This document shows positions 4,117 to 21,546 of a stretch of DNA of 64,000 nt, piece by piece. The notes under the pieces are model-generated. The model had not been told where the DNA came from. It ran no database searches and saw only the letters and a list, made by a program, of their open reading frames with translations. Position numbers and translations under genes: made by a program. Each line of letters starts with the position of its first letter. Positions within the stretch are counted from its first letter, which is position 1. Source of the DNA: Candidatus Parcubacteria bacterium (GTDB lineage: Bacteria; Patescibacteriota; Minisyncoccia; Phycocordibacterales; UBA5272); the NCBI GenBank assembly GCA_039796775.1, contig JBDKJD010000001.1, positions 5,874-69,873 on the forward strand, written 5' to 3'.

Positions 4117-4617
4117 ATGTATAAAGCTCTTATTGTATTTTGTGCTGCACTTCTTTTAGGGAGCGCTTTTTACTATTTTAAAACTGGAGATGGTGGGTTA
4201 ATGCTTGAACGAGCAGTCACTCAAACAATTTCAAAACAAGAAGGAGTCACTCTTATTCAACTATTTTCTGGGAATTATAAATGTGAAGCAGATGATGGCT
4301 GCTCATTCCCGGTTGAGCTCAAGCTCTATGATGATACTAGTTTTGAATTGTTGTATAACAATACAGAAACACAGGAAGAGGTACAGGTAGCGGAAGGAAT
4401 TTGGGGTGTTGGAAGTAATAACAAACTGATTCTCATTGTGGATAGACAACGTTCAGCAAAACATATGCCTAAGTCAATATATGGCGTCATTGATACCTTA
4501 AAAATCAAAAACATTTCATCCAAAGCTACCATCTTTGAATGGATCAAGAATCCAACATTTACGAGAGTTTCAAATGACTTACAAAAAAATTCATCAACAG
4601 AAGAAGAATCTTTTTAG
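4117..4617 (+). CDS. Hypothetical membrane or secreted protein.
   Basis: The N-terminal segment MYKALIVFCAALLLGSAFYYF is hydrophobic. Confidence 0.5.
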   Translation: MYKALIVFCAALLLGSAFYYFKTGDGGLMLERAVTQTISKQEGVTLIQLFSGNYKCEADDGCSFPVELKLYDDTSFELLYNNTETQEEVQVAEGIWGVGSNNKLILIVDRQRSAKHMPKSIYGVIDTLKIKNISSKATIFEWIKNPTFTRVSNDLQKNSSTEEESF

Positions 4618-4949: not shown

Positions 4950-5528
4950 TTATTCTGACAGTATTAAATCCTTAATAAAAATACTTTTTGTGCTACTCCC
5001 ATACACAACGCGTACAGTGCTTGAAGCATAAGAGAGAGACGTGGGTGTGGTAGTACCTAGCTTTATAGCATTAGCTCGAGCATAGGTGAGATCAGAGAGT
5101 CCGTACGCTAAGGCTACATAATATGTAGTATTTTCTTGTGTTACAAAGATAATATCCTTAAAACTATCATCATTAACAAAAGCTTTAACTGAAAGCGTGC
5201 TAGTAGCCGTAAGAGTATCCTTGAATGTTAAATATGTCGAGGTGCCAGACACGATGTATTGACCATCAAGGGATGTGAGGGAGGGTACTTTCTCTATATT
5301 ACCAGCTTTAAGTTGCATATCTTCACGAACAAAGATTTTAGTCTGTGTCTTACACAAATAAGGATAATCTTTTGGGACCACAAAACGAGCCTTAACACAC
5401 TCTTCATAAGAAGAGACATCGGTGAATGTTGTTTTAAGTGACACAAAAAAACTATACGCAACAAAAGACGAGACTGTAATAGTAATTAAAAAGATCTTAT
5501 TCTTATTGAGGAAATGATAGAGAGGCAT
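4950..5528 (-). CDS. Hypothetical membrane-anchored protein rich in Ser and Thr.
   Basis: There is an N-terminal transmembrane segment and a T/S-rich ectodomain. Confidence 0.5.
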   Translation of the reverse strand: MPLYHFLNKNKIFLITITVSSFVAYSFFVSLKTTFTDVSSYEECVKARFVVPKDYPYLCKTQTKIFVREDMQLKAGNIEKVPSLTSLDGQYIVSGTSTYLTFKDTLTATSTLSVKAFVNDDSFKDIIFVTQENTTYYVALAYGLSDLTYARANAIKLGTTTPTSLSYASSTVRVVYGSSTKSIFIKDLILSE

Positions 5529-5582
5529 GATTATTATTAAGTAGCAAGTGTATTACAGTATATCAACAATGACGAACGAATC

Positions 5583-8500
5583 TTATCTATTTTGTTGATA
5601 TTCTTTAAAAATAACAATTCCGGCCCTCAGTATTTTCCATACAAAAATACATGCTGTCTTAACAATCCCAGGCTTATTCTCAAAAGCTACTGTTAGATGC
5701 GCATATTCCTTTCCTGGGAAACGATAGAATAATACTGGTATAAGGATGAGAGTGAGGATAATAGCAAATGCGAGTCCGAACATGATAGTAAATGCAAGCG
5801 GCCCCCAAAGTGTCGATACAGTTGCAAGAGGTATCATCCCAACCACTGTCGTTACTGTTGTCAAAAATATAGGTCTCAAACGAACAGCGGAAGATTCAAC
5901 AATAGCTTCCAAGAGGGAGAAGTTCTGGCTTTCTTTCTCTAGAGCTAATCGTTTCAAGATGGAGTCTAATAATATGATCGCATGATTAATAATCACTCCA
6001 GCTAAAGCAACAAGACCGAGCATAGAAGAGAATGACAATGACTGCCCGGTTAATGTGAGACCGAACAATACACCAATGAGCGAGAGGGGGATAGTGAGGA
6101 GAAGGTACATTGAATATCGTAATGAGTTAAACTCAAGAACCAAGATAGCGAGCATCCCTAGCATCCCAACAATAAGTGCTAGCCCCATTTCTTTGAACGT
6201 TCTCTGTACATCTTCATTTTCTCCCCCATACACAACTTCAACAGAGGAAGGGATATCAAGCTCGGCTTCTCTTTTTTGAAAAGCATTCACAACTTCTATT
6301 GCATTAGCCCCACCTTCTAACCCAGCCGTGATTCTCGTATAACGCTTACCATTATCATGATTGATTTCATTTTTGCTTGTGCCAAGAGATACACTCACCA
6401 GTGATCCAAGCGGAATTACTTGAGAACTATTTGTCGTTACTGGCAATTGCTTAATAGCATCAATTGTTGCAACTGAAGTATCTTCAGGATTAATAAAAGA
6501 ATTGTTGAGATCAACTTTGACGACAATGTCTATATCTTCTTCTTGTTTTGTTATCGTTGTAGCATTCACTCCGGAGACTGCGGTTCTTAATATTTGAGCC
6601 ACAGTAAGAGGATTTAACCCTACCTGTGAAGCTTTTGCTCTGTCTACTTCTATGTTGAATTGAGCACCATCATTTTTAAGTGAGGTTTCGATATTTTTTG
6701 CTCCGCCTATATCATTTAATAATGTCTCACCCTTATCTGCTAACAGTGAAAGTTCTTCGAGTGAATCTCCTTTGAAAGTGATAACAATAGGTGCGCCTGA
6801 TGGTGGGCCATTGTTACCTTGTTCTACTTTTATGAATGCACCATTAATAACTGATAGTTTTGATTCAAGATAGGGGATGAGTTCAGTTGAAGTCATTTCC
6901 TTTTCTTGTTTGAGATTAACGGTGATATTAGCTAACTTTGTATTCTGTCCTCCTCCGTTATTAGAGAATACAGATGACGCACCAACTGTTGTGATAAACG
7001 ATTCAATATAAGGCTCCTCATAAAGAATTTCTTCAACCTGTCTCACATAAAGATCAGTATCCTTAAGCGGTGTCCCTTGTGGTCGCTCAACAGAAACATA
7101 GATCGCATTCTGCTCTTCTTGTGGAAAGAACTCTACGTTTAAAAATCCAAGGACTGGTAGGAGAATTGAAGTCAAGAGAGATATTTTTAGAAAATTAAAA
7201 AACTTATTCTGAAAATTACTATTTTGTAATATCTTTCGAAGAAAATCCTTGTACCAATTCCTAGCTTTAACGAAATATTCTTCTTGAATCCTAATCAAAC
7301 GATTTTCTGACACTTCACTTGTTGTGTGTTTTTTGTCAGATAACAAAATAGCAAGAAGTGGGACCATTCCAAGAGCAACAAAAATAGACGCAATGAGAAC
7401 GAAAATAATAGTGAATGGTATTGAAGAGATAAATTGTCCTACAACTCCAGAGAGGAAAAATAGTGGGGCAAATACAGCAACAGTAGTCATTGTTCCTGCT
7501 ATAAGAGGCCAGGCGTATTCTCGTATTGAATCTTCAGCTGCCTTATAAATATCCCCATCATATTTATCTTTCTTTGTATGTATGGCTTCTGCTATTACAA
7601 TACCTGAGTCCACTAATATTCCTATCGCCAAGATAAGAGAAAATAGTGACAAGAAGTTAATAGTATTACCAGATGCATACAAGCCAATGAATGCAATCAC
7701 AAAAGAAAGCGGAATAGAGAGCCCGGCTACAATACTTTCTCGCCATCCTATTGTCAAGAAGAGCATAATCATCACCAAGATAACAGTCTCTATACCAACA
7801 CGGAATAGCTGCGTGAGATCTTTCTTCACTTCTTTACCAGCATCAAAAGAGACAACGACAGATGAATCAATAAGAAGAGATGACTTAAGTTCTTCGATTT
7901 TTGCTTTAACGTCTTCACCGATGACTGTCACGTCCCCACCTGATTTTTTGTACACATTAAGAGAGATACCGTATTTAGAAGGTTCTCCATCCAATGAAAT
8001 TCGAGAGTATGTAGTCGGTGGAGCGATACCATCAATGGTGGTAGCAATATCCTTCAAATAAATTGTTGCACCATTTGTTGTTGATATAGGTATTTGAGAC
8101 ACAGTATCAATATCTTCTATTGATCCAAAAAACTTAATAGGGTAATCAATTGAAGACACGGTAATAGTTCCAACAGGAAGAGAGCTATTAGCTGCAGAGA
8201 TAGCTTGTAAGACTTGAGGGATTGAGACATTATAGCTTGCTAATTTGTCTTTGCGTAAGATTACCTGGAATTCTCTATCTCTTACCCCAGAAAGCTCCAC
8301 CTTAGATACTCCTTTTATTTTTTCTAATTCTTTTTCTAGACTTTTACCGAGCGCTCTTAATTGAGCTGGAGCTGAGTCAGAAGAAATAGAGAAGATAAGA
8401 ATTGGCTGTTCAGAGAAATTGATTTTGTTAACAGATGGTTCCGTTGCATCTTCTGGTAACTCATTCTTAACTTTATCTACTGATTCTTTGAGCGCTGCAA

Positions 8501-8837: not shown

Positions 8838-10490
8838 TTAGTCAATAACGTTAACAACAAAACCTTCTTTTAGTCCTCTTGCGTCCTTTACTATAATTTC
8901 AGTCCCAGACAATCCTTCTAGGATTTCTATTTGATCCCCCGAGACCGCTCCTTCTTTCACAGCTACAGACTGAAGTGTGTTAGATGCATTAACAACGAAG
9001 ACATTTGCTCCGCTTGGTGTTAGTTTAAGCGCAGAGAGAGGGATAGATATTTTAAAAGTATTCCCTGCAGTGACTGGTTGAGGATTAGTATCTTTCAAGG
9101 CACTCGTTACCGATATTCTTACTGACTGACCATTAATCAATGTATTTTGATCTTTGATTATCCCTATACGTACTTCTATCTTTTTTGTGCGAGGATCAAT
9201 AGCTTGAGCTACTTTGGTAACTATCCCTTCAACAGATACTCCGTTAGAGGTAACAATTGTTGCCTTCGACCCTATCGCTATTCGTTTCGTGTCATCTTCA
9301 TTAATAAACGATACCACCTCTAAAGCTTTATTGTTAGAAACTATAGCAACTTGAGAAAATGCGCCAATATAATCTCCTGAATTTAATGAAAGAGAATTAA
9401 TAGTTCCAGTGATAGGACTTCGTATAATTGTTTTTTGATAACGAGCAAGAGCTGCGTTATATGCACCCAAAGCTTGCTTCACCTGGGCTTCTGCTTGAGC
9501 TATTGTTCCTGTAATATCGGCATTATTACCTGAAATTTGTGTAGCGGTTTGACTTGAGGTGAGAGCAGTGCGGGTGCTTATAGTTCCATTTATGGTGCCA
9601 GTCACACTTGATCTCACTCCTTGGACTACTGCTTTTTGCGTATCGATGAAGGTTTGATTGAAGGTGCTATCTGGTATCGCTTTATTGTATGCGAGAGATA
9701 GATTATCTAAATAATTTTTGACAGTATTGAGTTCTGCTATAACTGTTGTTAATTCTGCCTGTAAGTCACTTGATGTTGTGATTGTTTTATTTCTCTCGCT
9801 TCTTGAAACGATAAGATTCTCAAGAGATTTTCTCTGTTGTTCAAGATTAAGTACTAGTGAAGAATCTGGCACAGATAATAAGAATTTAGCTTCACTAAAA
9901 CGAGGATCTCTATATGCTATATCCGTCTTGCCTCGAATCGCATCATCCATTGTGGTATAAGCAGAATATAATGTATTAAGTGCCTGATTTTTGACATCAT
10001 TTAAACTATTGCCAGATTGAGCGCTGTTTAATTTAGCGATTTGAAGTGAAGCTTTAGCTTGTTCATACGCGCCTTCTGCTTGTAACGTCGAAGCCCTTTC
10101 TGCGCTATTCTCAAATTCTGCAATAATTTGACCAGCAACTACCTGATCTCCTATTTTTCTGTAGACACGTGTTAACTTACCTGAACTTTCAGAAAGAATT
10201 GTCGCTTCACTTACAGAGGTAACAGTACCAACAAGAGGTATATCTTTGCTGTCTGAAGATAATTCTAAGAGTGAAGCAACTTGGACAGAACGTACACGCT
10301 CAGACGCTACTGCTTCTTTTGAAGAAGTGCCACCAAAGACAGCTATAAGCACTCCTCCGATAAGCATTATCTCACAAGCGATGAGTGCGTATCCCTTTTT
10401 CTTTGGGAGCTCTTTGTGTAAACGTATTACTTCGTTATAACTTTTTTCTAAATGATAGCGTATCTTCTGTAGATGATCTGTAGTTGTCAT
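8838..10490 (-). CDS. Efflux periplasmic adaptor / membrane fusion protein (HlyD-like).
   Basis: It has an N-terminal transmembrane segment, long coiled-coil segments and a beta-barrel-like C terminus. It sits immediately upstream of the RND gene. Confidence 0.8.
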   Translation of the reverse strand: MTTTDHLQKIRYHLEKSYNEVIRLHKELPKKKGYALIACEIMLIGGVLIAVFGGTSSKEAVASERVRSVQVASLLELSSDSKDIPLVGTVTSVSEATILSESSGKLTRVYRKIGDQVVAGQIIAEFENSAERASTLQAEGAYEQAKASLQIAKLNSAQSGNSLNDVKNQALNTLYSAYTTMDDAIRGKTDIAYRDPRFSEAKFLLSVPDSSLVLNLEQQRKSLENLIVSRSERNKTITTSSDLQAELTTVIAELNTVKNYLDNLSLAYNKAIPDSTFNQTFIDTQKAVVQGVRSSVTGTINGTISTRTALTSSQTATQISGNNADITGTIAQAEAQVKQALGAYNAALARYQKTIIRSPITGTINSLSLNSGDYIGAFSQVAIVSNNKALEVVSFINEDDTKRIAIGSKATIVTSNGVSVEGIVTKVAQAIDPRTKKIEVRIGIIKDQNTLINGQSVRISVTSALKDTNPQPVTAGNTFKISIPLSALKLTPSGANVFVVNASNTLQSVAVKEGAVSGDQIEILEGLSGTEIIVKDARGLKEGFVVNVID

Positions 10491-10499
10491 GGTTTTGTT

Positions 10500-10976
10500 T
10501 TATGAAAGTTTTGTTAATAATGCGAGTAATTGCTTCTGCTCTTTATCTTTAAGAGGGGAGAGTGAGCGTTTGATTTCTTGGAGAATCACTTTCTCTGCTT
10601 GTGTGAATATTTCTTTTCCTAAAGGGGAGATGGTAATGATGTGAGTTTTTTTATTATTGCGAAGCTTCTCTTTTTTTAGTAATTTTTTTTGTTCTAATGT
10701 TTTGATATGTCTACTGACTGTTGCTTCTTTTATGTTAAGATGTTCAGCTAAGTCTTTTTGGGAGAAGGAATCTCTACAGGGGCTAAGGAAGCTGATAAGG
10801 ACAATATATTGCGAGAATGTAAGATTGGCATTCTTCACAACAAGAGTCTCCACTCTCTTTGTTACATCTTCATGAAAACGATGCATTTTATGCATCAATT
10901 CTCCAGATACTGTAGATAAGAGCAAGCAGGAATTAGGTTCTTGTTTTGTCTTTTTTGACACTACTTTTGTTGTCAT
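10500..10976 (-). CDS. MarR-family transcriptional regulator.
   Basis: A winged HTH is present (DLAEHLNIKEATVSRHIKTLEQKKLL). It is the first gene of the MFP-RND operon. Confidence 0.8.
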   Translation of the reverse strand: MTTKVVSKKTKQEPNSCLLLSTVSGELMHKMHRFHEDVTKRVETLVVKNANLTFSQYIVLISFLSPCRDSFSQKDLAEHLNIKEATVSRHIKTLEQKKLLKKEKLRNNKKTHIITISPLGKEIFTQAEKVILQEIKRSLSPLKDKEQKQLLALLTKLS

Positions 10977-10983
10977 GCATCTT

Positions 10984-11005
10984 TTATCTTAGCATGCTAA
11001 GATAA
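10984..11005. promoter_or_regulatory. Perfect 22-bp palindrome (ttatcttagca|tgctaagataa), a candidate MarR operator.
   Basis: It lies 8 nt upstream of the marR-like start codon. Confidence 0.45.
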
Positions 11006-11136
11006 AAAAGTGAATAAGTACACACAATAACTTCAGTGCAAAGGACAGTCTGTGTCGCTCTATAGAATCTAAACAAAAGAACCCGCTTGGTGGGTTCTTT
11101 TGTTTTTATCTTACTCTAAAGATGATGATTCGATAC

Positions 11137-12804
11137 TTATGCCAATCTAAAGCCGAGATACTTTTTCTTTTTTAAGACAATTATCACACATATCATACTT
11201 ATTAACACAAGACCTGAACTCACAAGATAGAGAATTGTCGAATTCTGATACAACAATTCATAATAAAAACTAAATGCAGCCATGCTAGCAACTAGAAGTG
11301 TGGTTAACGTGAAGAATAGTCCTTGCCCTGTAGTGCTTATGAGCTCAGGTTCATCACTTTCTAAGCTAGGGAATAACGCACCGAGCGACAATGCGAAACT
11401 CACAATAAAAAACACAGTACTTAAGAAGAGTAGATAAAAATCAAAAGAGAGTTTTAATCCAAACTGAAGTACAATACTATTAACGAGACTCATCACGAAC
11501 CCTAGACACAAGAAAACAACAGAGAAGAATACTAGTTTGCCAATAAAGATTTTGTTGTAGGCTATAGGGGCTGTTCCTAATATCCAAAGTGTTTTCTTCT
11601 CTACACTAAAACTAGGAAACACGAATCTGAGTGCGAACGCTGCCACAAAGTACATCGCTATCACGAATTGAAATGCTTGGAGAAATGCAGTCTTAGAAGA
11701 TATGTCTGTACCGTCTGTCACCACAGAATCACTCACTGAAACAATAACAGCTATTTGTATAATCCATAATCCAAATAAAAACAAAAACCAGAGAACTCCC
11801 TTAGTATTTCTCATAAAAGATGTTATTTCTTTTACAAAGAGAAGCGATGTAGTACCTCGCACATGATTAAATAGAGTAGATGTTGTATCTGCGCCTTTCT
11901 TTAATTTTTCTTGAAATGACAATAAGAGATCATGGTGGAATCTAGTTGCCAGAATATAGATAAAGATGGAAACCACTGCGATACCCACAATAGCTACAAT
12001 ATTGTTCCAACTCATTGATAAGGCATATTGCCACTCTAGGAACATTGTTGAGATAAGAGAGCTTGGTGAGAGATAAAAGTATGATGTTATGTCAAGAAGT
12101 GTGACAGGAGTATCTCCCTCGGCTGATTTAAAAATAGTAAGAATTTTCAAATTTTTGATACTTGCATACACGGTCATCATAAGCCCAAGAACCAAAGCTC
12201 CAATAATCACAACAAAATGAGCGAAATTAGCTTTTCTTTTAAAGAGCGTAGTTATACTCATATAACATTTCCCAATTAAAAATATGCTCGCATGTGACAG
12301 AGCGACACTTATTATGAGCAATACTACGAGTATGAACATAGCCAATAAAACTTGGAGGAGTGACAGAGAGTGTACTTTGTCAAACGCTACAATAGCTGGA
12401 ACAAAAAGGATGAGGAACGGTAACATGCTCGCTCCCACCCCTTTGGTAAAATGATGATAGGGAAAATCTCTAAAAGAAGGCGAGGCGAGTAACCATTCAT
12501 TTCGTCGTGTTGAAAAAAGTGAGAACATGCCACTTATAAGAGCACTCGTGCACATCAACAAAAACAATACGAGGAAGAACATGTTATAGAGGAACAAAAG
12601 AAGTGGCTGACGTATCAATTCTTCTTCTATTTGAATGTCAACATATCTAAGTCCAGAAACAATAAAAGCGTAGATCAAACTACCGATACTTAAGAATAGT
12701 GCTACGAAGAGTCCTGTAGTGACTGTCTTAGCAAGCGTATTTGTTTTAAAATAAGCTCCTGTCTTTTTGTATTGAAAAACAAGAAAGGGAATAAGGGTAT
12801 TCAT
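11137..12804 (-). CDS. ABC transporter permease, a large polytopic ABC-2-like protein.
   Basis: It is 555 aa with more than 10 hydrophobic segments and is co-oriented with the ATPase gene upstream. Confidence 0.75.
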   Translation of the reverse strand: MNTLIPFLVFQYKKTGAYFKTNTLAKTVTTGLFVALFLSIGSLIYAFIVSGLRYVDIQIEEELIRQPLLLFLYNMFFLVLFLLMCTSALISGMFSLFSTRRNEWLLASPSFRDFPYHHFTKGVGASMLPFLILFVPAIVAFDKVHSLSLLQVLLAMFILVVLLIISVALSHASIFLIGKCYMSITTLFKRKANFAHFVVIIGALVLGLMMTVYASIKNLKILTIFKSAEGDTPVTLLDITSYFYLSPSSLISTMFLEWQYALSMSWNNIVAIVGIAVVSIFIYILATRFHHDLLLSFQEKLKKGADTTSTLFNHVRGTTSLLFVKEITSFMRNTKGVLWFLFLFGLWIIQIAVIVSVSDSVVTDGTDISSKTAFLQAFQFVIAMYFVAAFALRFVFPSFSVEKKTLWILGTAPIAYNKIFIGKLVFFSVVFLCLGFVMSLVNSIVLQFGLKLSFDFYLLFLSTVFFIVSFALSLGALFPSLESDEPELISTTGQGLFFTLTTLLVASMAAFSFYYELLYQNSTILYLVSSGLVLISMICVIIVLKKKKYLGFRLA

Positions 12805-12816
12805 AGTTAATTCTAT

Positions 12817-13545
12817 TTATGACTGAAGCACGAGCGAGTCGTACACTTCTTCAAGCGATGTATCATCTCCCAGCTTTGCTTTTTCTCTTAATTCTTGTAA
12901 CGTGCCAACCGCTATCAATTCTCCGTATTTCAGCACTCCTATTTTCGTCGCTATTTCTTCAGCAACTTTGAGTGTGTGAGTGACGAGTAGTACAGCGCCT
13001 CCACTTTTAGCATGGTTCACGAATAATTGCTTTGCGATCTTAGCTCCCTCTGGATCCAATCCAACAATAGGTTCGTCTATTACGAGAAGTTCTGGATCAT
13101 GAGAAATAGCAGACAGGATACTAAACTTTTGTTTATTCCCTCGAGAGTAGTCATCAAAATAATTATTCTCTATGCCGTTTAAGTGAAAGATGGGGAGTAA
13201 TTCTGTTATTTTCTTTTCTCGTTTTATCTGTGGCACCTTAAAGAAGGTCTGCATCATGAGTAGAAATTCCTTTCCGGTCATATATGACCAAATAGAAGGC
13301 TCGTCCGGTATATATCCAATATGAGACTTTGTCTTTTCTCCTTCTTTGACAACATCGTGACCAAGCACAGTAATTGTTCCACTTGTTGGCTCCAATAATC
13401 CCAAAATACTTTTCACAATAGTTGTTTTACCAGAACTGTTCGGTCCGATGAGAGCGAATATTTCTCCCTTTTTTATTTCAAAACTAACAGAAGATACCGC
13501 TTTGTTGTCTCCAAATTTTTTTGTAAGATTATGTACTTGTAGCAT
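12817..13545 (-). CDS. ABC transporter ATP-binding protein.
   Basis: Walker A (GPNSSGKTT), the signature motif (YSRGNKQK) and Walker B (LLVIDEP) are present. Confidence 0.9.
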   Translation of the reverse strand: MLQVHNLTKKFGDNKAVSSVSFEIKKGEIFALIGPNSSGKTTIVKSILGLLEPTSGTITVLGHDVVKEGEKTKSHIGYIPDEPSIWSYMTGKEFLLMMQTFFKVPQIKREKKITELLPIFHLNGIENNYFDDYSRGNKQKFSILSAISHDPELLVIDEPIVGLDPEGAKIAKQLFVNHAKSGGAVLLVTHTLKVAEEIATKIGVLKYGELIAVGTLQELREKAKLGDDTSLEEVYDSLVLQS

Positions 13546-13655
13546 ATGTTGTTAAGTATATGTAGCGTGCTAAGAATAGCAAGGGAAAGACTATAACAAA
13601 AACTACCAACATACTTTGTCCACTGAATTAACTTTATAGAAAGTCGAAAGGTCTT

Positions 13656-14609
13656 TTATTCTTCTTGAATCTTAAGTACAACATTCCCTACTTTTTTCTT
13701 ACTATCGACAAGTTGATACGCTTTAGCGACTTCGTCTATAGTGAACGTTTTATTAATAACAGGATGGATCACACCTTTGGTATAGAGTGAAGATATGATT
13801 AAAAATTGCTCAGAGGTTACCCTCGCTGTCCCAATAATAACTTTATATTTTTTGATAAAAAGACTTTGCAGCATTTCTTTAATCAACCCCGAGAGGAGAA
13901 TAATAACACCTCCTTCTTTGGTCAGCAGATGAATACTCTTCACAGGTATAACGTTTACGCAGTCTATTACTACATCATACTTTATACCAAGAGATAGGAT
14001 ATCAGTCTTTGTATAATCAAATACCATATCTGCTCCCAATTGAGTCATCAGTTCTACATTATCAGTACTTGTAACCGCGGTTACAAGAGCACCCCTGTCT
14101 TTTGAAAGTTGCAAAAAGGACACACCAACAGCCCCTGAAGCACCATTAATAAAAACCGTTTTATTGGCAAGATCTACACCCTCAAGAAAGTGTAAAGCGG
14201 TAGTAAAACCAAAAGGAAGTGCCGCTGCGTCAACATAACTCATTTTCTCCGGGATTTTACCCATTGGGGTAGTGTTATTAATAACCAAGTATTCAGCATG
14301 GCAGCCCACAAAATTTTCAGTCATTCCGTAGACACGATCACCAACAGTATATGTGGACACATTAGCTCCAATCTCTTCTACGATTCCAGAAAAGTTAGCA
14401 CCCAAAATACGCTTACGTGGACCCATAAAACCAAACACCAGTCGCACAAACCAAGGATCAGCTCTTCTTAACCTTGCGTCTCCACTGTTAACGCCAGCTG
14501 CTATTATCTTAATACGTAACTGATTTGGTTTTGTGATTATTGGCTCTTCTATATTTTTTACTTGAGCAACTTCTGGTCCACCATATTTTTCTACAATAAC
14601 TGCCTTCAT
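13656..14609 (-). CDS. Zinc-type alcohol dehydrogenase / quinone oxidoreductase-like protein of the MDR superfamily.
   Basis: It starts MKAVIVEKYGGPEVAQVKN and carries GASGAVG. The start was moved to the internal ATG at 14609, because the track ORF extends through a non-homologous N-terminal leader. Confidence 0.8.
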   Translation of the reverse strand: MKAVIVEKYGGPEVAQVKNIEEPIITKPNQLRIKIIAAGVNSGDARLRRADPWFVRLVFGFMGPRKRILGANFSGIVEEIGANVSTYTVGDRVYGMTENFVGCHAEYLVINNTTPMGKIPEKMSYVDAAALPFGFTTALHFLEGVDLANKTVFINGASGAVGVSFLQLSKDRGALVTAVTSTDNVELMTQLGADMVFDYTKTDILSLGIKYDVVIDCVNVIPVKSIHLLTKEGGVIILLSGLIKEMLQSLFIKKYKVIIGTARVTSEQFLIISSLYTKGVIHPVINKTFTIDEVAKAYQLVDSKKKVGNVVLKIQEE

Positions 14610-14668
14610 ACAATGCAGTTTACAGTATTTATTTTTCATCTCAAAGATTACTGAAGAAAATAAGTTAT

Positions 14669-14700
14669 AAAAAAAGAAATGCCAGCTCCGCGGAGCTGGC
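14669..14700 (-). terminator. Rho-independent terminator on the minus strand.
   Basis: gccagctcc-gcg-gagctggc is followed on the minus strand by atttcttttttta. Confidence 0.5.
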
Positions 14701-14965
14701 ATTTGGACGAGTATTCGGCTAACCTTTACAGAGGTTCTCGTTCGCGCGATTTGTGTCAAAATAGGGTTTTATTGCCTAAAGACATCTTAATGTTATCAAA
14801 CATGAGAAGAGGAAGTCAATAAGTCGACTTACTCCTTAGTTGCAACATCTCGTGTAAAGAAGTAAGTTAGCCAGAGGGAAGTATGAGAATGCGGTGAGTG
14901 CATAAAAAGAAATCCACTGAATCACGCTGACCTTTCTTAATAAAATAAATTATCAACTTATACTA

Positions 14966-14974
14966 TGGTATAAT
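14966..14974 (+). promoter_or_regulatory. Extended -10 promoter element (TGgTATAAT).
   Basis: A perfect TGnTATAAT lies ~16 nt upstream of the ATG at 14990. Confidence 0.4.
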
Positions 14975-14989
14975 TACGTAAACAAAACT

Positions 14990-15180
14990 ATGGGGAAAGT
15001 TATACCATTTAGTCCAGAAGGAAGAAAAAAATACTTGATACTGAATCTGAAGTAAACGATACAGCTTCAAAAGATTCTAATGAACCTAAAGTTACGGGCC
15101 ACAAAAAGGCAATTGAAGAACTTTGTCAGATAATGAAACCGGGACAAGACTTTGCAAATGCGGTTCTGCGCTATTTGTGA
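14990..15180 (+). pseudogene. Small ORF interrupted at an A7 run; with one extra A it would encode a 63-aa protein.
   Basis: MGKVIPFSPEGRKK stops after 21 aa. The adjacent frame continues ..LDTESEVNDTASKDSNEPKVTGHKKAIEELCQIMKPGQDFANAVLRYL to a TGA at 15178-15180. Confidence 0.3.
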
Positions 15181-15220
15181 CCTTTGCGTAAAACGCTGTT
15201 GCCAGGTCACGTGCAATGAA

Positions 15221-15252
15221 AGCCACGGGGTCAGTTAGGGTGACAATTTAGG
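15221..15252 (+). repeat. Imperfect inverted copy of the tRNA-Asn 3' end and flank (gccacggggtCAGTTAGGGtgaca versus the minus-strand tRNA end cccacggagcCAGTTAGGGgtac).
   Basis: About 18 of 24 positions match, including an exact 9-mer. It is a candidate boundary or recombination site for the integrated element. Confidence 0.35.
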
Positions 15253-15309
15253 TCCAAATGGTACACAGGTTCAGAACTTTTAATTGGGCTAATGTAAAAA
15301 ATAGTTTTC

Positions 15310-15942
15310 TTACACAGAGTCCTCAATAACTTCTTTTGGTGACCCTAACGCCTTTGATGAACGCCAACGAAACGATCTTTCGAAAAAACCAGTCACTTCT
15401 TCAAAAATTGAATTAACATCGGATTCCGTTATCTCTTCCAAAATTTCTTCTGGATGAAGAACCTCATTTCGTGTGATTCTTGTTATTGTTCCATTAGAAA
15501 ACTGATCTTTATCTATTATATTCTTTTCATAGAGAAGTTCTAATCTTTTAAAAAGACTTAACTTTTTTTCTCCAGGGTTTTTAATCAAAGAATTAACATG
15601 GGCTTCTAGAAGTACACCACATAAAGCAACAACACTTCTATTTAAACTTGCTGACTTAGCTTTAAGTAGCTCCATATAAGTATCTTTATAGTTGTCAGGT
15701 AACCATGAAGGGATAGTGCCTACATACTCTTTTGGGAAAACTGATTTTAGATTTCTTGTTCCATTTATTCCATTAGTGTACTCAGCAACAATCACATGCC
15801 CACCCGGGCAGTAAAGAGTTTCAATACTTATGCCATTTCTTGGAGTAAAGCTAGACCTTACCTCAAAATAGCTATCCTTTCCACACCTACTACACGTCCC
15901 AGACCAAGTTGCTTGCTGGGTATTAAATTGTATTTCTTGCAT
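15310..15942 (-). CDS. Protein with an N-terminal zinc ribbon and a C-terminal DUF4145-like helical domain.
   Basis: The N terminus has CSRCG...CPGGH. The C terminus (..LFKRLELLYEKNIIDKDQFSNGTITRITRNEVLHPEE..) matches the DUF4145 pattern as I recall it. Confidence 0.5.
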   Translation of the reverse strand: MQEIQFNTQQATWSGTCSRCGKDSYFEVRSSFTPRNGISIETLYCPGGHVIVAEYTNGINGTRNLKSVFPKEYVGTIPSWLPDNYKDTYMELLKAKSASLNRSVVALCGVLLEAHVNSLIKNPGEKKLSLFKRLELLYEKNIIDKDQFSNGTITRITRNEVLHPEEILEEITESDVNSIFEEVTGFFERSFRWRSSKALGSPKEVIEDSV

Positions 15943-16330: not shown

Positions 16331-16681
16331 TTAGTGGTTATTTGAGATAACCTTTACTATCGCTTCTGCAATCTCTTTTGCATGTGTTTCCACTAGTATA
16401 TTCGGTATATGTTTTACAAAAATATCTTCCTTGTTTGAAAAGTAGTCTCTATGAAAATCTGCATCTATTTGTGATGCGTTAAGGTAATGCTGCGCCCCAT
16501 CAATTTCAAGAGCAATCTTTGCCTTTGGTATATAAATATCAATATGTTTGTGTCCATCCCAGTATTCAAGTTCTAGATCAACACCAAGTGCTTTAAGCTC
16601 ACTTGCTAGTAATAATGCTTGAGGTGTTGATTGTATTAGTGGCATAAAAAATAAACAACTGAAATACAAAAAGCCCACCAC
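16331..16681 (-). CDS. DUF559 / endonuclease-domain protein.
   Basis: KIALEIDGAQHY...DADFHRDYF...VKHIPN fits the DUF559 restriction-endonuclease-like fold pattern. Confidence 0.55.
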   Translation of the reverse strand: MVGFLYFSCLFFMPLIQSTPQALLLASELKALGVDLELEYWDGHKHIDIYIPKAKIALEIDGAQHYLNASQIDADFHRDYFSNKEDIFVKHIPNILVETHAKEIAEAIVKVISNNH

Positions 16682-16880
16682 GTGAGTGAGAGCTTACGCC
16701 CTCCATACCCGTTTCCAGGTACGGCCGTTCAAGACAAATCCCACATGATGGGTTTTTTATTTTGAACGGGCTTTTCACCATGCCAATATTGCTATTGGTT
16801 TAGGCTACTTGTATTCAGTTGTATCTATATAATAACGTAGAAAATGACAAAATAAAAGAAATTAAGTAGTATACAGGGCA

Positions 16881-17792
16881 ATGGAGGCTAGTAAAATTAA
16901 AACTGAATTGGAACAACTCTATAGCTTGATTCCTGAAAAAATAAAGAGAGAAGCTGAACCTCCTCTTGATTTTGCCGTCGAAAAACCGATAGATTTTCTT
17001 CGTACCTTATATAACTATGTCGACTATATTAAGAACAAGGAGTTACTACAAAAAATAATTACTGTAGAAAAAGAAAGAAAAGCGCAAGAGTTAATTAAGC
17101 TTGCAAAATCTTCCATGGAGTCTAGACACGCTCATGAACATTTTGATATCTTTCAAGATCATATCAAGGAAGAAAAAAGAAACAACGATGAGGTTGATCA
17201 AGATCCAATTTATAACTACGGGCTTCTTCTTGATGCATATGAATCTTTTGAAATAATTAAAGATTTAAAAACAGAAGAGGAAATGCGCAAATTTCCAATC
17301 GTACTAAAACGAGAATCGCCATACGGTAACTCCACAAGTAATTTTTATGGGTATGGATTATTAAACCTGGCCATGTTCAGATACCCTGAACCAGGGCATC
17401 TTCACATTTTTTTACTTAACGCGCTAAATGAACTTGAAAGAGGAAAACCATTAAACAAATATCTTGAATATGATAATGAAAATGGTGTTTTATATTTTAA
17501 TGATCAAGTAATAAAAATACGGGTTAAAAATTCACCGACAGTAGGCGCACACCTACTCCTACAATACCTTGTTAAGAATAAGCCATTTGAAAAGCATGGT
17601 TATTATGAGTTCAATGATAACAATGTTTTTCTTGATGAAAAATCAGCAAAAGCATGTCTACACATTTGTAACGATATTCAAAAAAAAGTTTTGGAAAATA
17701 CTGGAATACCTGACTTTTTGGATTACAACACCGGAGAAGATATGTATGTTCGAATTAATCCAAAACATTCTTTAAATATAACCGACAAATAA
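16881..17792 (+). CDS. Hypothetical protein of 303 aa.
   Basis: It is a long ORF with a hairpin terminator (ccgacat...atgtcgg) immediately downstream. Confidence 0.5.
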   Translation: MEASKIKTELEQLYSLIPEKIKREAEPPLDFAVEKPIDFLRTLYNYVDYIKNKELLQKIITVEKERKAQELIKLAKSSMESRHAHEHFDIFQDHIKEEKRNNDEVDQDPIYNYGLLLDAYESFEIIKDLKTEEEMRKFPIVLKRESPYGNSTSNFYGYGLLNLAMFRYPEPGHLHIFLLNALNELERGKPLNKYLEYDNENGVLYFNDQVIKIRVKNSPTVGAHLLLQYLVKNKPFEKHGYYEFNDNNVFLDEKSAKACLHICNDIQKKVLENTGIPDFLDYNTGEDMYVRINPKHSLNITDK

Positions 17793-17799
17793 CCATTCC

Positions 17800-18195
17800 G
17801 ACATGTTCCGGGAAAGATGTCGGTAACAGTGTGTCATAAAGTTGAATCATCCTAATCAAGGATGATTTTCTTTTACTAAGGGTGATTTATTGAGGGGTTT
17901 GCATTTGGCACGATACTCTCGATTACTCACTTATATAAGCAGACCTTTCGGCGGAGCGGAAAGGTCTCTAGCGTACAGCATTAAGCACACAGGCTTTTGC
18001 CTTGTCAAACTCGAACGGAGTTTACGGAGTGAGTTTGATAAGGATAAAAGCTGTGTGCTACGAGAGCATTCCCGAGCGACCGATTAAAGCGAAGGGAATG
18101 ATCTTGTGCGCGAAGCGCGTGCACAAGTGACATCCGGAGGACGGCGCGCAGTGCGTATTTGCATCTGTTGACTCGACTAAACATACACTTACGGA
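17800..18195 (+). promoter_or_regulatory. GC-rich cluster of stem-loops upstream of the Rep gene, a candidate rolling-circle origin (dso).
   Basis: Hairpins include ccgacatgttccgggaaagatgtcgg, aatcatcct-aatcaa-ggatgatt, agacctttcggcggagcggaaaggtct and cttgtgcgcgaagcgcgtgcacaag. The local GC content is well above the surrounding DNA. Confidence 0.4.
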
Positions 18196-18198
18196 GAA

Positions 18199-19068
18199 AT
18201 GAGAAATCCAATAATCTACAAAAAGAAAATAATAATCTCTGGCTCAACAGTTGAGATTCTTTCATACGAGATACCGATAACACATGGTTTTGAAATATCT
18301 CCTAAGTGGAGAGAAAAGAGGAGACTGGCGAAGTTATCGGCTAAAGCAAACCTATCAGAGCAACAATTGCAAGAACGAAGAAAAAGAAACAGAAAACTAG
18401 CCATGATACGAGCAAGTAAAACACTCATACGACTGATTGATTGTAATGTATATCAATACAAAAATACCGTAGGAAGAATCTATCTTCCTGTCTTTCTTAC
18501 GCTTACATTTAAAGAAGACGTACGAGAACAAAAAGAAGCCAATAGACTGTTTACTCTTTTCATAAAAAGACTGAACTACCATGTAAACAAAAAGATCAGA
18601 AACCCACTCAGGTATTCTGTTGTTATCGAGTTCCAAGATCTTAATCGTAAAGGGGTAATTCATTACCATACTCTTTTCTATGATCTGCCATTTATACGAA
18701 GTACAACACTAGAGAATCTCTGGGGAGAAGGTTCTATTAATATCAACAAAGTACATAAGGTTAAGAAGATTGGACTATATGTTTCTAAGTATATGTCTAA
18801 GAATTTTGAAGACCCTCGACTCGATGGACATAAACGATACTTTTCAAGTAGAGGACTTATCAAGCCTAAGACGTATGCAGGAGAGGAAGCGTACAGAATC
18901 GTTAAGTCTGTCATACCTACAGAGGTAACTGTTAAGGTGAGTAACTTTACTACTGAGAAACTTGGCAGTGTAACAAAGGAACTATTTTCTTTTCCTGAGA
19001 AGGAGCATATAGGCGAGCATATCTCCTCTGAGTTTAGGGAGTTGCTTGAGAAGTATGACATTTCCTAA
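18199..19068 (+). CDS. HUH-superfamily rolling-circle replication initiator (Rep), phiX174 gpA / RCR-plasmid type.
   Basis: Motif I is FLTLTF, motif II is HYHTLFY (HUH), and motif III is YVSKYMSK (YxxKY double tyrosine). The order and spacing are correct. Confidence 0.75.
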   Translation: MRNPIIYKKKIIISGSTVEILSYEIPITHGFEISPKWREKRRLAKLSAKANLSEQQLQERRKRNRKLAMIRASKTLIRLIDCNVYQYKNTVGRIYLPVFLTLTFKEDVREQKEANRLFTLFIKRLNYHVNKKIRNPLRYSVVIEFQDLNRKGVIHYHTLFYDLPFIRSTTLENLWGEGSININKVHKVKKIGLYVSKYMSKNFEDPRLDGHKRYFSSRGLIKPKTYAGEEAYRIVKSVIPTEVTVKVSNFTTEKLGSVTKELFSFPEKEHIGEHISSEFRELLEKYDIS

Positions 19069-19983: not shown

Positions 19984-21513
19984 ATGAAAGCAATTATCGT
20001 AGCAAGAGTCTCCACAGACGAACAGAAAGAAAATTCTCCTGATGCTCAGATATACAGAATGGAGAGATACTGCGAGAATAAAAATCTAACTATTATTGAA
20101 AGGTTCAGCTTTGTTGAGAGCGCTTACAAAACTAAACGTGATGAATTCGATAAAATCTTATCATCGGTAAAGAGCACAAAAGAAAGAGTTGCTATTTGCT
20201 TTGACAAAGTTGACCGACTCTCTAGAAACATATTCGACAAGCGAGTAGCTTTGCTGTACGAGAAAGCTATTAATAATGATATTGAACTTCACTTTGTTTC
20301 TGATGGTCAGGTGATAGACAGTAACATCTCTGCGGGTGATAAATTTGCCTTTGGAATGAAGCTTGGTCTTTCTAAATACTATTCAGATGCGATCAGCGAT
20401 AACGTGAAGCGTGCATTTGAACAAAAGCGAAGAAATGGTGAATGGACTGGTAGTGTACGACTCGGGTATCTTAACGTTACCTTAGACGAAAGCAAGAGAC
20501 TTCGAAAGGATATTATTGTTGACCCTGAAAGAGGGCACCTCATAGTTAGAATGTTTGAACTCTACGCTACAGGACTATATTCACTAGAAACTATTCGTCT
20601 ACAAATGATCGATCTCGGACTAAGGACACTCAAAGGTAACAAGCCTTCAAAGAGCGGTATTGAGAATCTTCTTAAGGATAGCTTTTATTGTGGTGTTGCT
20701 ATGTCTCCTAAATATGGAAACTTTCACCACAAGTACCCAAGACTTATCTCAAGAGAACTTTTTGATCAATGTCAAGATATACGAAATGGACGCAACCTTC
20801 GTAAACATAAGTCTGTATCTAAGGAAGTTCTCTTTAAAGGACTTATTACTTGTGATCGTTGTGGTTGTACCATGACACCAGAAATAAAAAGGAAACCTAG
20901 TGGTAAGGAATATGTATTCTATTCTTGTACCAATGCCAAGAAGATATGCGAAAGGATATATGTTAATGAGAAGGAGCTTCTTAAGCCAATTTATGACATT
21001 CTAGACAGATTCCAATCTATATCCCAAGAGACACAGGACAGACTAATTAAGGAACTCAAATCAACCAATCAAGTAGAATCTGATTTTCATAAAGCGCAGA
21101 TTTCCAGAATTAACAGTGAACTTGATATGATCAAAATAAAGCAAGATAAGCTTCTAGACGCATACCTAGATGAGCGTGTTACAGAGGAACAATTTAGCCA
21201 AAAGCAAAAAGAGTATTCTCGTCAGACAGGATTACTTGAGATTGAAGCTAGTGAGTACAGAAAGGGGGATTTTAGCTATCAAGATACCGTAGCTCAAATA
21301 ATTACAATATCTCGAGAAGCAAAGGATATTTTTGAGAAGAGTTCTGATGTTGCCGGAAAACGTGCTTTTATCAATTCACTAATTCAGAACCCGACCGTAA
21401 ATAAGAAAAAGCTATGTTTTACCATAGCTTCTCCTTATAATTTAGTACTAGAACTTGCTAGTACCCCTAACTGGCTCCGTGGGCAGGGATCGAACCTGCG
21501 ACCAACTCGTTAA
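19984..21513 (+). CDS. Large serine recombinase with a resolvase/invertase catalytic domain, a recombinase domain, a zinc ribbon and a coiled coil.
   Basis: The N terminus is MKAIIVARVSTDEQ (catalytic Ser). A Cys cluster (CDRCGCTMTPE...YSCTN) is present. Its 3' end overlaps the tRNA-Asn gene by 42 nt on the opposite strand. Confidence 0.85.
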   Translation: MKAIIVARVSTDEQKENSPDAQIYRMERYCENKNLTIIERFSFVESAYKTKRDEFDKILSSVKSTKERVAICFDKVDRLSRNIFDKRVALLYEKAINNDIELHFVSDGQVIDSNISAGDKFAFGMKLGLSKYYSDAISDNVKRAFEQKRRNGEWTGSVRLGYLNVTLDESKRLRKDIIVDPERGHLIVRMFELYATGLYSLETIRLQMIDLGLRTLKGNKPSKSGIENLLKDSFYCGVAMSPKYGNFHHKYPRLISRELFDQCQDIRNGRNLRKHKSVSKEVLFKGLITCDRCGCTMTPEIKRKPSGKEYVFYSCTNAKKICERIYVNEKELLKPIYDILDRFQSISQETQDRLIKELKSTNQVESDFHKAQISRINSELDMIKIKQDKLLDAYLDERVTEEQFSQKQKEYSRQTGLLEIEASEYRKGDFSYQDTVAQIITISREAKDIFEKSSDVAGKRAFINSLIQNPTVNKKKLCFTIASPYNLVLELASTPNWLRGQGSNLRPTR

Positions 21514-21546
21514 CAGCGAGCTGCTCTACCGCTGAGCTACCACGGA
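21472..21546 (-). tRNA. tRNA-Asn (anticodon GTT).
   Basis: A manual cloverleaf gives: acceptor TCCGTGG/CCACGGA, D arm GCTC-AGCGGTA-GAGC, anticodon stem with loop CTGTTAA, T arm GCAGG-TTCGATC-CCTGC, discriminator G, encoded CCA. Confidence 0.9.

Follow-up and report, generated by a model that had tools for sequence, protein, structure and literature searches.

Candidate replication-origin region of an integrated rolling-circle plasmid in a Parcubacteria bacterium: a phiX174-like nick motif preceded by a strand-specific hairpin domain

On the f1 map, the intergenic region of the Ff phages contains, in order, a packaging signal, a minus-strand origin, and a plus-strand origin. In most rolling-circle replication (RCR) plasmids, the single-strand origin (sso) lies upstream of the double-strand origin (dso) and is a structure-based, orientation-specific region of 160–340 nt (PMC4595007, PMC5703833). 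The sequence CTTGATA is the conserved nick site of Rep_1/pC194 initiators (PMC10378824), and sso1 of ICEBs1 demonstrates that an sso can be important in an integrative element as well (PMC4595007). GEBRO, a GC-enriched structured motif that may act as single-stranded DNA (ssDNA), is located between the sso and the dso of the rolling-circle plasmid pUA140 (PMC5737381). Bacteria of the Candidate Phyla Radiation (CPR), or Patescibacteria, represent a large share of bacterial diversity, with almost no genetic tools and few characterized plasmids. Here we describe a non-coding gap in a 64,000-nt stretch of DNA from a Candidatus Parcubacteria bacterium (contig JBDKJD010000001.1, positions 5,874 to 69,873; hereafter the window, whose own numbering is used throughout). 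Most likely, a small rolling-circle plasmid integrated in this Parcubacteria genome has its replication-origin region here. We favor, with modest confidence, the view that it is the cis-acting region of an integrative rolling-circle plasmid of ~6 kb, in which a 3′ block serves as a dso of the phiX174/pC194 type and a hairpin domain serves as the sso.

The gap (17793–18198) extends from the stop codon of a 303-aa open reading frame (ORF; 16881–17792, + strand) to the ATG of rep at 18199. An earlier note on this DNA had pointed to ~400 nt of GC-richer sequence at this place, which is borne out: the G+C content of 17800–18195 was 46.5%, compared with 38.3% for the whole window, and ranked in the top 3% among windows of equal size. 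For the core of the region (17941–18154), the value was 53.3% (top 0.4%). The note had listed just two overlapping ORFs and considered them implausible. We found three of at least 40 aa inside the gap (17890–18087 and 18002–18130 on the + strand, and 18005–18283 on the − strand), and their frames are indeed not conserved, as the indels among relatives are 1, 2, 4, 5, 7, or 8 nt long. These non-triplet indels, together with stops in every frame of the relatives' alignment, rule out a coding role of the gap. When the whole window was searched with the covariance models of Rfam 15 (4227 families, including GEBRO, ARRPOF, and PAGEV) at the gathering score, no family was found within 17793–18198, and relaxing the threshold to E ≤ 10 for 17500–18500 brought up no family that was credible for the region. 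The sole Rfam match touching the gap was a chance match to RAGATH-25 (15.4 bits; gathering score, 49) at 17848–17894 on the − strand, on a terminator hairpin. Against 50,697 records of phages and 72,556 of plasmids, blastn returned zero matches for the region.

The gene that follows the gap, rep (18199–19068, + strand), encodes a 289-aa rolling-circle initiator of the HUH type. The protein matched Pfam PF23343 (REP_ORF2-G2P) with an E-value of 2.2e-20, as well as PHROG replication-initiation families, confirming the claim of the earlier note that the hairpin cluster sits directly upstream of a genuine Rep gene. A protein with 100% identity to Rep is encoded in a metagenome-assembled genome of Candidatus Parcubacteria. 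Rep contains the motifs FLTLTF, HYHTLFY, and YVSKYMSK, the last with two tyrosines. Across 37 homologues (alignment A1), H155, H157, and Y194 were invariant and Y198 was nearly so. The gpA protein of phiX174 has comparable motifs in the same order (FDTLTL, HFHAVHF, and YVAKYVNK). In an hhalign comparison of the two proteins, motifs I and II were aligned with little significance (E = 0.04, probability 1.3%), which is insufficient for a claim of homology, and we therefore speak of a resemblance at the motif level. Some members of the Rep family gave sub-threshold matches to RepSA (PF20199). Sequence searches of the PDB with Rep, the 303-aa ORF, and a 256-aa ORF downstream of rep yielded no matches.

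A conserved motif upstream of rep was examined in 117 non-redundant upstream regions taken from Rep relatives of 27–61% identity (CPR, Firmicutes, Collinsella, and others). CTTGAT was present on the rep strand in 77 of the 117 regions and on the other strand in 12, against 11.6% expected by shuffling, and the extended consensus TTgACTTGATTATAggcACACTtAA had a median distance of 54 nt from the rep start. ACAC followed CTTGAT in 38 of 78 occurrences, with a spacing of 7 nt in 34 of these 38. The form CTYGAY-N7-ACAC was confined to the + strand, where 52 of the 117 regions contained it (− strand, 0). The composite motif ACTYGAY-N7-ACACT is found family-wide at ≤40–100 nt upstream of rep, on the rep strand only. 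In the window, it reads ACTCGAC-TAAACAT-ACACT at 18171–18189 (ACTCGAC, 18171–18177; ACACT, 18185–18189) and is the single match on both strands of the 64 kb, where 0.03 would be expected by chance. The motif belongs to the candidate dso block GTTGACTCG^ACTAAACATACACTTACGGAGAA (18167–18198, + strand), which is AT-rich, is unpaired in both consensus folds, and also includes the rep ribosome-binding site GGAG.

The layout of this motif is that of the phiX174 origin. The phiX174 record reads CAACTTGATATTAATAACACTATAG, that is, CAACTTG^ATATTAATAACACT, with the nick of the viral-strand origin annotated at 4306, the A after the G; the origin thus has ACTTG^AT, 7 nt, and ACACT. By analogy with phiX174, the nick in the window is predicted between G18175 and A18176, 23 nt before the ATG.

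The sequence 5′ of this block is highly structured. As RNA, the + strand folded to −154.4 kcal/mol (z = −7.7), and as DNA to −75.7 kcal/mol (z = −6.2); in neither case was any of 100 shuffles as good. The − strand was weaker, at −124.5 (RNA) and −66.5 (DNA) kcal/mol. An iterated nhmmer search of 198 rep loci (designated by L and a number) found the hairpin domain immediately upstream of rep in L180, L185, L194, L184, L188, L182, and L019, and the 3′ third of it also in L195, L187, and L198, and the structure is drawn from these 8–11 sequences. RNAalifold analysis of an 8-sequence alignment (A3) gave 47 consensus pairs, 17 of which had changes on both sides, and 94% of cells were paired under the consensus structure. 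None of 500 shuffles reached 17 compensatory pairs, and sliding the 3′ partners by 1–3 columns left only 2–4 compensatory pairs and 32–49% pairing. In the consensus pairs, 22 G·T/U cells were observed versus 3 A·C cells. Therefore, it is the + strand, and not the duplex or the − strand, that is under structural selection, and this wobble asymmetry argues against a symmetric cruciform.

The four strong stem-loops of the earlier note are all present in the region, shifted by 1–2 nt, and the folding it had suggested as a check shows the region to fold far better than shuffled sequences. Elements that it had overlooked are a 76-nt hairpin (17984–18059), hairpins at 18067–18100 and 18131–18143, and the conserved unpaired block at 18155–18198. 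The note had proposed the hairpins themselves as a candidate dso, with Rep nicking within a hairpin loop. Its placing of an origin region of a rolling-circle replicon here agrees with our results, but the best candidate nick site lies in the unpaired 18167–18198, and no nick-like sequence is present in any of the four loops that it named. The note is thus partly supported, being right on the system and the neighborhood and wrong on the element named as the nick site. The best candidate for a loop nick is a different one, AACTYG^A at the stem-loop junction of the long hairpin (18009–18014). This second ACTYGA is nearly invariant at the top of the hairpin, beside a C(GNA)G mini-hairpin, and reads AACTTGA, as in phiX174, in four relatives and AACTCGA in the window; in the closest subfamily, moreover, the apex copy varies less than the core of the 3′ block. 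Cleavage inside a hairpin loop is known for many HUH initiators (PMC5714925, PMC5703833). However, the long hairpin is restricted to the closest subfamily, whereas the composite motif is family-wide and occurs even in mini-circles with Rep only. The apex copy has no ACACT half-site at +7, most of its ACTYG is base-paired in the stem, and the wobbles are strand-asymmetric. We therefore regard nicking in an extruded loop as an unlikely explanation of the region.

The loops of the domain point to the kind of molecule that folds. C(GNA)G triloop hairpins in the 8 sequences numbered 14 on the + strand and 0 on the − strand, with ~0.08 expected per sequence. Read by eye from the alignments, the terminal loops of H2, the H3 apex, H5, and H6 (hairpins are numbered H2 to H7 from the 5′ end of the domain) were GNA in 28 of 38 cases. 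Two exact heptamers of the form GCGNAGC are present in the window, GCGGAGC (17951–17957) and GCGAAGC (18110–18116). Among 77 loci of the whole family, GCGNAGC within 200 nt 5′ of the nick motif was found 26 times on the + strand and twice on the − strand. Since this enrichment includes relatives that do not carry this domain, the mini-hairpins are tied to the origin rather than to an RNA of one lineage. The mini-hairpins d(GCGNAGC) and d(GCGNNAGC) have an extraordinary stability (the Tm of d(GCGAAGC) is 76.5°C), and the RNA counterpart r(GCGAAAGC) melts at 39°C (PMC13037366, a 2026 review). According to the same review, such mini-hairpins recur at ssDNA initiation sites, namely, the complementary-strand origins of G4, St-1, and alpha3 and ssiA of RSF1010 (PMC13037366). 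The LOOT RNA encoded in the same element has GNRA tetraloops and not GNA triloops. As judged from these loop sequences, the GNA chemistry provides moderate evidence for a fold that was selected in DNA.

The domain could instead be a structured RNA: a long 5′ leader of the rep mRNA, transcribed by read-through or from a promoter that escaped recognition, or else a non-coding RNA in its own right. Such an RNA would govern the production of Rep or the copy number, with the 3′ block acting as promoter and leader of rep. Regulation of rep by RNAs is common in RCR plasmids. The rep-sense strand carries the structure with the strongly negative z-score as RNA given above, the covariation and the G·U pairs are typical of RNAs, and unpaired loops such as GACCGATTAAA are conserved. 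No promoter was seen between the domain and the ATG, so that rep transcripts probably begin upstream and include the domain. In addition, Weinberg et al. state from their motif searches that sequence analysis cannot reliably separate ssDNA from RNA motifs (PMC5737381). The evidence on the other side comes from the surroundings of the domain and from its loops: a terminator-like hairpin precedes it, its 5′ edge has no conserved promoter, no Rfam family matches it even at E ≤ 10, and the consensus has no pairing to the ribosome-binding site or the AUG. Most terminal loops are of the C(GNA)G kind, the stability of which is exceptional in DNA and far lower in RNA (PMC13037366), and the GCGNAGC heptamer accompanies the nick motif in distant relatives without the domain. 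On balance, we consider an RNA function of the domain rather unlikely.

A different possibility is that the inverted repeats are binding sites in duplex DNA, forming an operator, partition, or packaging site for the conserved upstream protein. Both arms of the long hairpin, GTCAAACTYGA and TGAGTTTGAC, are invariant and resemble a palindromic operator, hexamer direct repeats are present, and the upstream ORF is syntenic in all relatives. For the 303-aa protein, GTATYT repeats and the GTCAAACT/AGTTTGAC repeat may be the targets. An AlphaFold model of this protein (pLDDT 61.6) ends in a helix-helix-helix-beta-hairpin unit, and the modeled C-terminus weakly matched the DNA-binding domains of OmpR/PhoB proteins (AdeR, SaeR, and KdpE; E = 0.1–1). 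With a low-confidence model and matches in this range, the likeness is a lead only. The 17 compensatory pairs and the wobbles on one strand are unexpected for duplex sites, and no morphogenesis genes were detected in the element, which speaks against a packaging signal in particular. Protein binding to duplex DNA is thus a highly improbable account of the main role of the domain.

We return to the reading of the gap as a dso of the phiX174/pC194 type with an sso upstream. The element, excised as a supercoiled circle, would be bound by Rep at the 3′ block, through the ACACTTA half and perhaps the GTATYT hexamers, and one of the two tyrosines of YVSKYMSK would cut the + strand after G18175 in ACTCG^AC. 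The 3′-OH would prime leading-strand synthesis through rep and then round the circle, and the second tyrosine would cut the regenerated site, releasing a + strand circle. The hairpin domain of ~270 nt (17941–18154, H2 to H7), which lies immediately 5′ of the nick and ends 21 nt from its predicted position, would be displaced last. In the single-stranded + circle, it is expected to fold into GNA-capped mini-hairpins and one long hairpin and could then act as the sso, that is, a structured landing site free of single-stranded DNA-binding protein, at which host RNA polymerase or primase would prime the complementary strand. H5 to H7, beside the nick, may also help extrusion or melting at the dso. 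The domain shares with known ssos its extensive strand-specific structure, on the strand of the nick motif, and its location upstream of the dso. We also put forward, tentatively and as a possibility on which we would not yet insist, that the domain represents a new class of functional ssDNA fold, multi-helical, preserved through covariation, and with GNA mini-hairpins in almost all terminal loops, which would be the lagging-strand origin of an undescribed CPR/Patescibacteria family of integrative rolling-circle plasmids that carry LOOT. In a bolder variant of this proposal, ACTYG^A at the apex of the long hairpin would be a second Rep target, presented by the hairpin in the ssDNA form only.

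Several points weigh against this interpretation. The core in the window is ACTCGAC and not the canonical CTTGATA; ACTCG^ACT matches ACTTGAT at 5 of 7 positions, and members of the closest subfamily have C, A, T, or G immediately before the G. With its TTGACT and TGATTATA-like sequences, the conserved block may alternatively, or additionally, be the promoter and leader of rep, although a 3′ block with this second function would be compatible with a dso role. The signatures known from ssoA lack conservation, and no duplex resembling −35/−10 elements is evident in the stems. A sigma-70 scan and a relaxed scan of the 8 aligned sequences found no position-conserved promoter inside the gap, a negative result of little weight, given how poorly the promoters of CPR bacteria are known. 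Since the rep mRNA and the predicted displaced strand are of the same sense, an RNA would give the same covariation, wobble, and loop asymmetry, and read-through from the upstream gene would transcribe the hairpin domain. Finally, just 8–11 sequences support the structure.

The individual elements of the gap, all on the + strand, are as follows from 5′ to 3′. Just past the stop codon of the upstream ORF, a first hairpin (CCGACAT/ATGTCGG, 7 bp with a 12-nt loop; 17798–17823) is shared only with the near relative L198; it does not align in other relatives and lies outside the conserved domain. It is followed by a terminator-like hairpin, GAATCATCC..GGATGATTT and a T run (17844–17877), the stem of which, AATCATCC/GGATGATT (17846–17868), is the second hairpin of the earlier note. 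This hairpin is probably the terminator of the ORF at 16881–17792, and a similar hairpin with a T run after the upstream ORF can be read from alignment A2 in L194, L184, and L019. The conserved domain begins with H2 (17941–17967), the third hairpin of the earlier note, a 9-bp stem AGACCTTTC/GAAAGGTCT capped by the mini-hairpin GCGGAGC mentioned above. Its position is kept while the stem varies (CCTTTC/GAAAGG, TTTTTTC/GAAAAAA, and TCCCC/GGGGA), and its loop is GNA in 6 of 8 sequences. TAGCGT at 17969–17974 matches CS-6 of ssoA (TAGCGA/T); as it is present in the window and in 0 of 7 relatives, the match is probably due to chance, and membership in ssoA was rejected on this basis, with RSB not looked for; other classes of sso have structure as their defining feature.

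The largest and most conserved element is H3 (17984–18059), a long imperfect hairpin of 76 nt with ~26 consensus pairs. The apex loop between its invariant apical arms (18014–18029) contains C(GGA)G. Helices 1 and 2 of H3 are 96–98% paired and include 8 pairs changed on both sides, for example, GCACAC/GTGTGC versus GCATAC/GTATGC. H4 (18067–18100; helices 3 and 4) has the stem CATTCCC/GGGAATG, a purine internal loop, and the conserved 11-nt loop GACCGATTAAA; compensatory changes give CATTCTC/GAGAATG, and CCTGCCC/GGGCGGG in L182. H5 (18108–18118) is GCGC-GAA-GCGC, which holds the heptamer GCGAAGC, and its loop is GNA in 8 of 11 relatives. The fourth hairpin of the earlier note (18103–18127) corresponds to this element with an outer stem, CTTGTGC/GCACAAG; the outer stem is not conserved, whereas the inner GCGC-GAA-GCGC is. 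H7 (18121–18154) pairs GCAC at 18121–18124 with GTGC at 18151–18154 and encloses H6, in which 18131–18135 pairs with 18139–18143 around a GGA loop. The H6/H7 module shows CATCC/GGATG versus TGCCC/GGGCA versus CGTCC/GGACG, with 6 pairs changed on both sides, and is present in L195, L187, and L198 as well. Between the domain and the dso block, the direct hexamer repeats GTATTT and GCATCT (18155–18166) are candidate iterons or protein-binding repeats. L188 (~4280–4330) has ~7 tandem GTATYY hexamers in an iteron-like arrangement directly 5′ of the conserved GTATCTGTT..nick block; two are present in other relatives.

Relatives also differ in the composition of the gap. At L190 (~7330–7425) and L191 (~5370–5461), with Rep identities of 50–51%, arrays of GGGCCC palindromes of the form GGGCC-TCG-GGGCCC-ATG-GGCCC... 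take the place of the hairpin domain by the nick block, and a single GGGCCC or GGGTCC is found at the same place in L180 and L185. L198 (1024–1442) has an upstream ORF 75% identical to that of the window and the same 5′ hairpins, yet it carries a nick block of the L019 type (CCTTGATTATAGTCACACATAATG). This mixed make-up indicates that the intergenic region is a recombination joint between modules.

The gap is part of a small integrative element. In the window, a DUF4145 gene and a Vsr/DUF559-like gene on the − strand are followed by the LOOT RNA (RF03000, 85.7 bits; 16688–16806, − strand), the 303-aa ORF, the gap, rep, the 256-aa ORF, and a large serine recombinase (integrase; 19984–21513, + strand), the 3′ end of which overlaps a tRNA-Asn gene (21472–21546, − strand). 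The contigs of the closest Rep homologues (46–61% identity) show an unknown ORF of 216–325 aa, a gap of 260–725 nt, rep, a small ORF, optional cargo, and a serine recombinase, which often adjoins a tRNA. The order from rep to recombinase and tRNA was also found in L182 (9020–10752), L191 (6478–8195), L019 (~6476–6547), and L187 (3558–3619). The recombinase gene extends at its 3′ end up to, or into, a tRNA gene of the opposite strand, from which we conclude that tRNA genes are the insertion sites of these elements and are partly rebuilt by them. In the window, neither a displaced half of tRNA-Asn nor direct repeats marking the left end of the element were found. The gap itself was considered as attP, a reading that we rejected because attP sites are short and 3.3 kb separate the gap from the recombinase and the tRNA junction. 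Among the ORFs of the element, Pfam and PHROG scans gave matches for Rep, the serine recombinase, the DUF4145 protein, and the Vsr/DUF559-like protein only.

Evidence for a circular form comes from relatives. L194 (1–6180) has 30 identical terminal bases, as expected for a circular path in an assembly with k = 31. Closed, it is a circle of 6150 bp with a complete 533-aa serine recombinase across the junction, and it carries the same intergenic domain. Circles with Rep only, of 1.39–2.0 kb (L041, L139, L146, L148, L157, L160, L161, L114, L149, L150, and L156), have terminal overlaps of 44–141 nt and 0.5–1.2 kb of non-coding DNA, come mostly from digester-type metagenomes, and in most cases carry CTTGAT 40–100 nt upstream of rep. 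Taken together, the L194 circle and the Rep-only circles indicate that this Rep family drives autonomous circular replicons and that the element of the window has a circular form.

LOOT (RF03000, 86–102 bits) recurs in L191 (4104–4224), L019 (2529–2647), L190 (6101–6220), and L195 (2064–2180). It is always on the strand opposite to rep, ~1–1.5 kb upstream of it, in a divergent gap before the unknown ORF, and seems to form part of these integrative Rep elements. The 303-aa upstream ORF has only 4 homologues among 5.8 billion sequences. Defense-type genes accompany several of the elements. In the window, these are the DUF4145 gene and the gene for the Vsr/DUF559-like endonuclease (15310–15942 and 16331–16681); in L192, a HinfI-type restriction-modification pair (5262–7455) separates rep from the recombinase gene; L195 has a ThsB-TIR protein (164–787), and L180 a type I restriction-modification system just beyond the recombinase (9370–15334).

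The element represents a family of integrative rolling-circle CPR plasmids not described before, and the orphan RNA motif LOOT is hereby placed inside a specific family of mobile elements. As a compact module that combines rep, a nick site like that of phiX174, a candidate sso, and a serine integrase that targets a tRNA gene, the element would be a natural starting point for replicating or integrating vectors. Strand-specific GNA/GCGNAGC mini-hairpins beside a Rep nick motif, a criterion that requires sequence only, may further help to separate ssDNA structures from RNA structures, which the authors of motif searches have called an unsolved problem (PMC5737381).

Compared with the known systems, the region has several features in common with phiX174. 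The motif order, HUH with Y-x-x-K-Y, and ACTTG^AT plus 7 nt plus ACACT on the Rep-encoding strand are the same as for gpA and its origin, which a C(GAA)G mini-hairpin also flanks (CCCC-GAA-GGGG in phiX174). By contrast, the protein likeness is at the motif level only, with Pfam PF23343 here instead of Phage_GPA; the origin is intergenic, upstream of rep, and not inside the gene; the core in the window is ACTCGAC; and the element has no capsid genes and integrates by a serine recombinase. With the pC194/pUB110 origins (ssoA, ssoU, and ssoT), the region has in common the CTTGATA nick consensus found in the Rep family (PMC10378824), a candidate dso upstream of rep, and, upstream of the dso, a strand-specific structured region (160–340 nt in these plasmids, where it works by folding as ssDNA; PMC5703833, PMC4595007). 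It differs in that Rep is PF23343 and not Rep_1, in that there is no similarity to PLSDB plasmids and no conserved CS-6 motif, and in that the replicon is integrative and has a CPR host.

The Ff phages f1 and M13 have initiators of the gpII type, with which PF23343 is shared, and likewise a hairpin cluster of ~400 nt directly upstream of the initiator gene; however, the region shows no similarity to deposited phages, scans of the element revealed neither Zot/pI-type nor coat genes, and the nick motif is phiX/pC194-like and not f1-like. GEBRO (Weinberg et al. 2017) is also a GC-enriched, conserved structured motif of a rolling-circle replicon, but no covariance-model match to it was obtained even at E ≤ 10, and the host phylum and the Rep family differ. 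ICEBs1 and the actinomycete integrative and conjugative elements of the pSAM2 type (RepSA), which use rolling-circle replication once excised, resemble the element in their integration next to or in a tRNA gene and in having an HUH-type initiator of their own, whereas a serine recombinase, a size of only ~6 kb, and no detected conjugation genes distinguish the element described here. In addition, sso1 of ICEBs1 is downstream of oriT, and the candidate sso is upstream of the dso. By analogy with these systems, the region would work like an origin region of the phiX174/pC194 type within the intergenic geometry of the Ff phages, as a new module of origin and sso-like domain.

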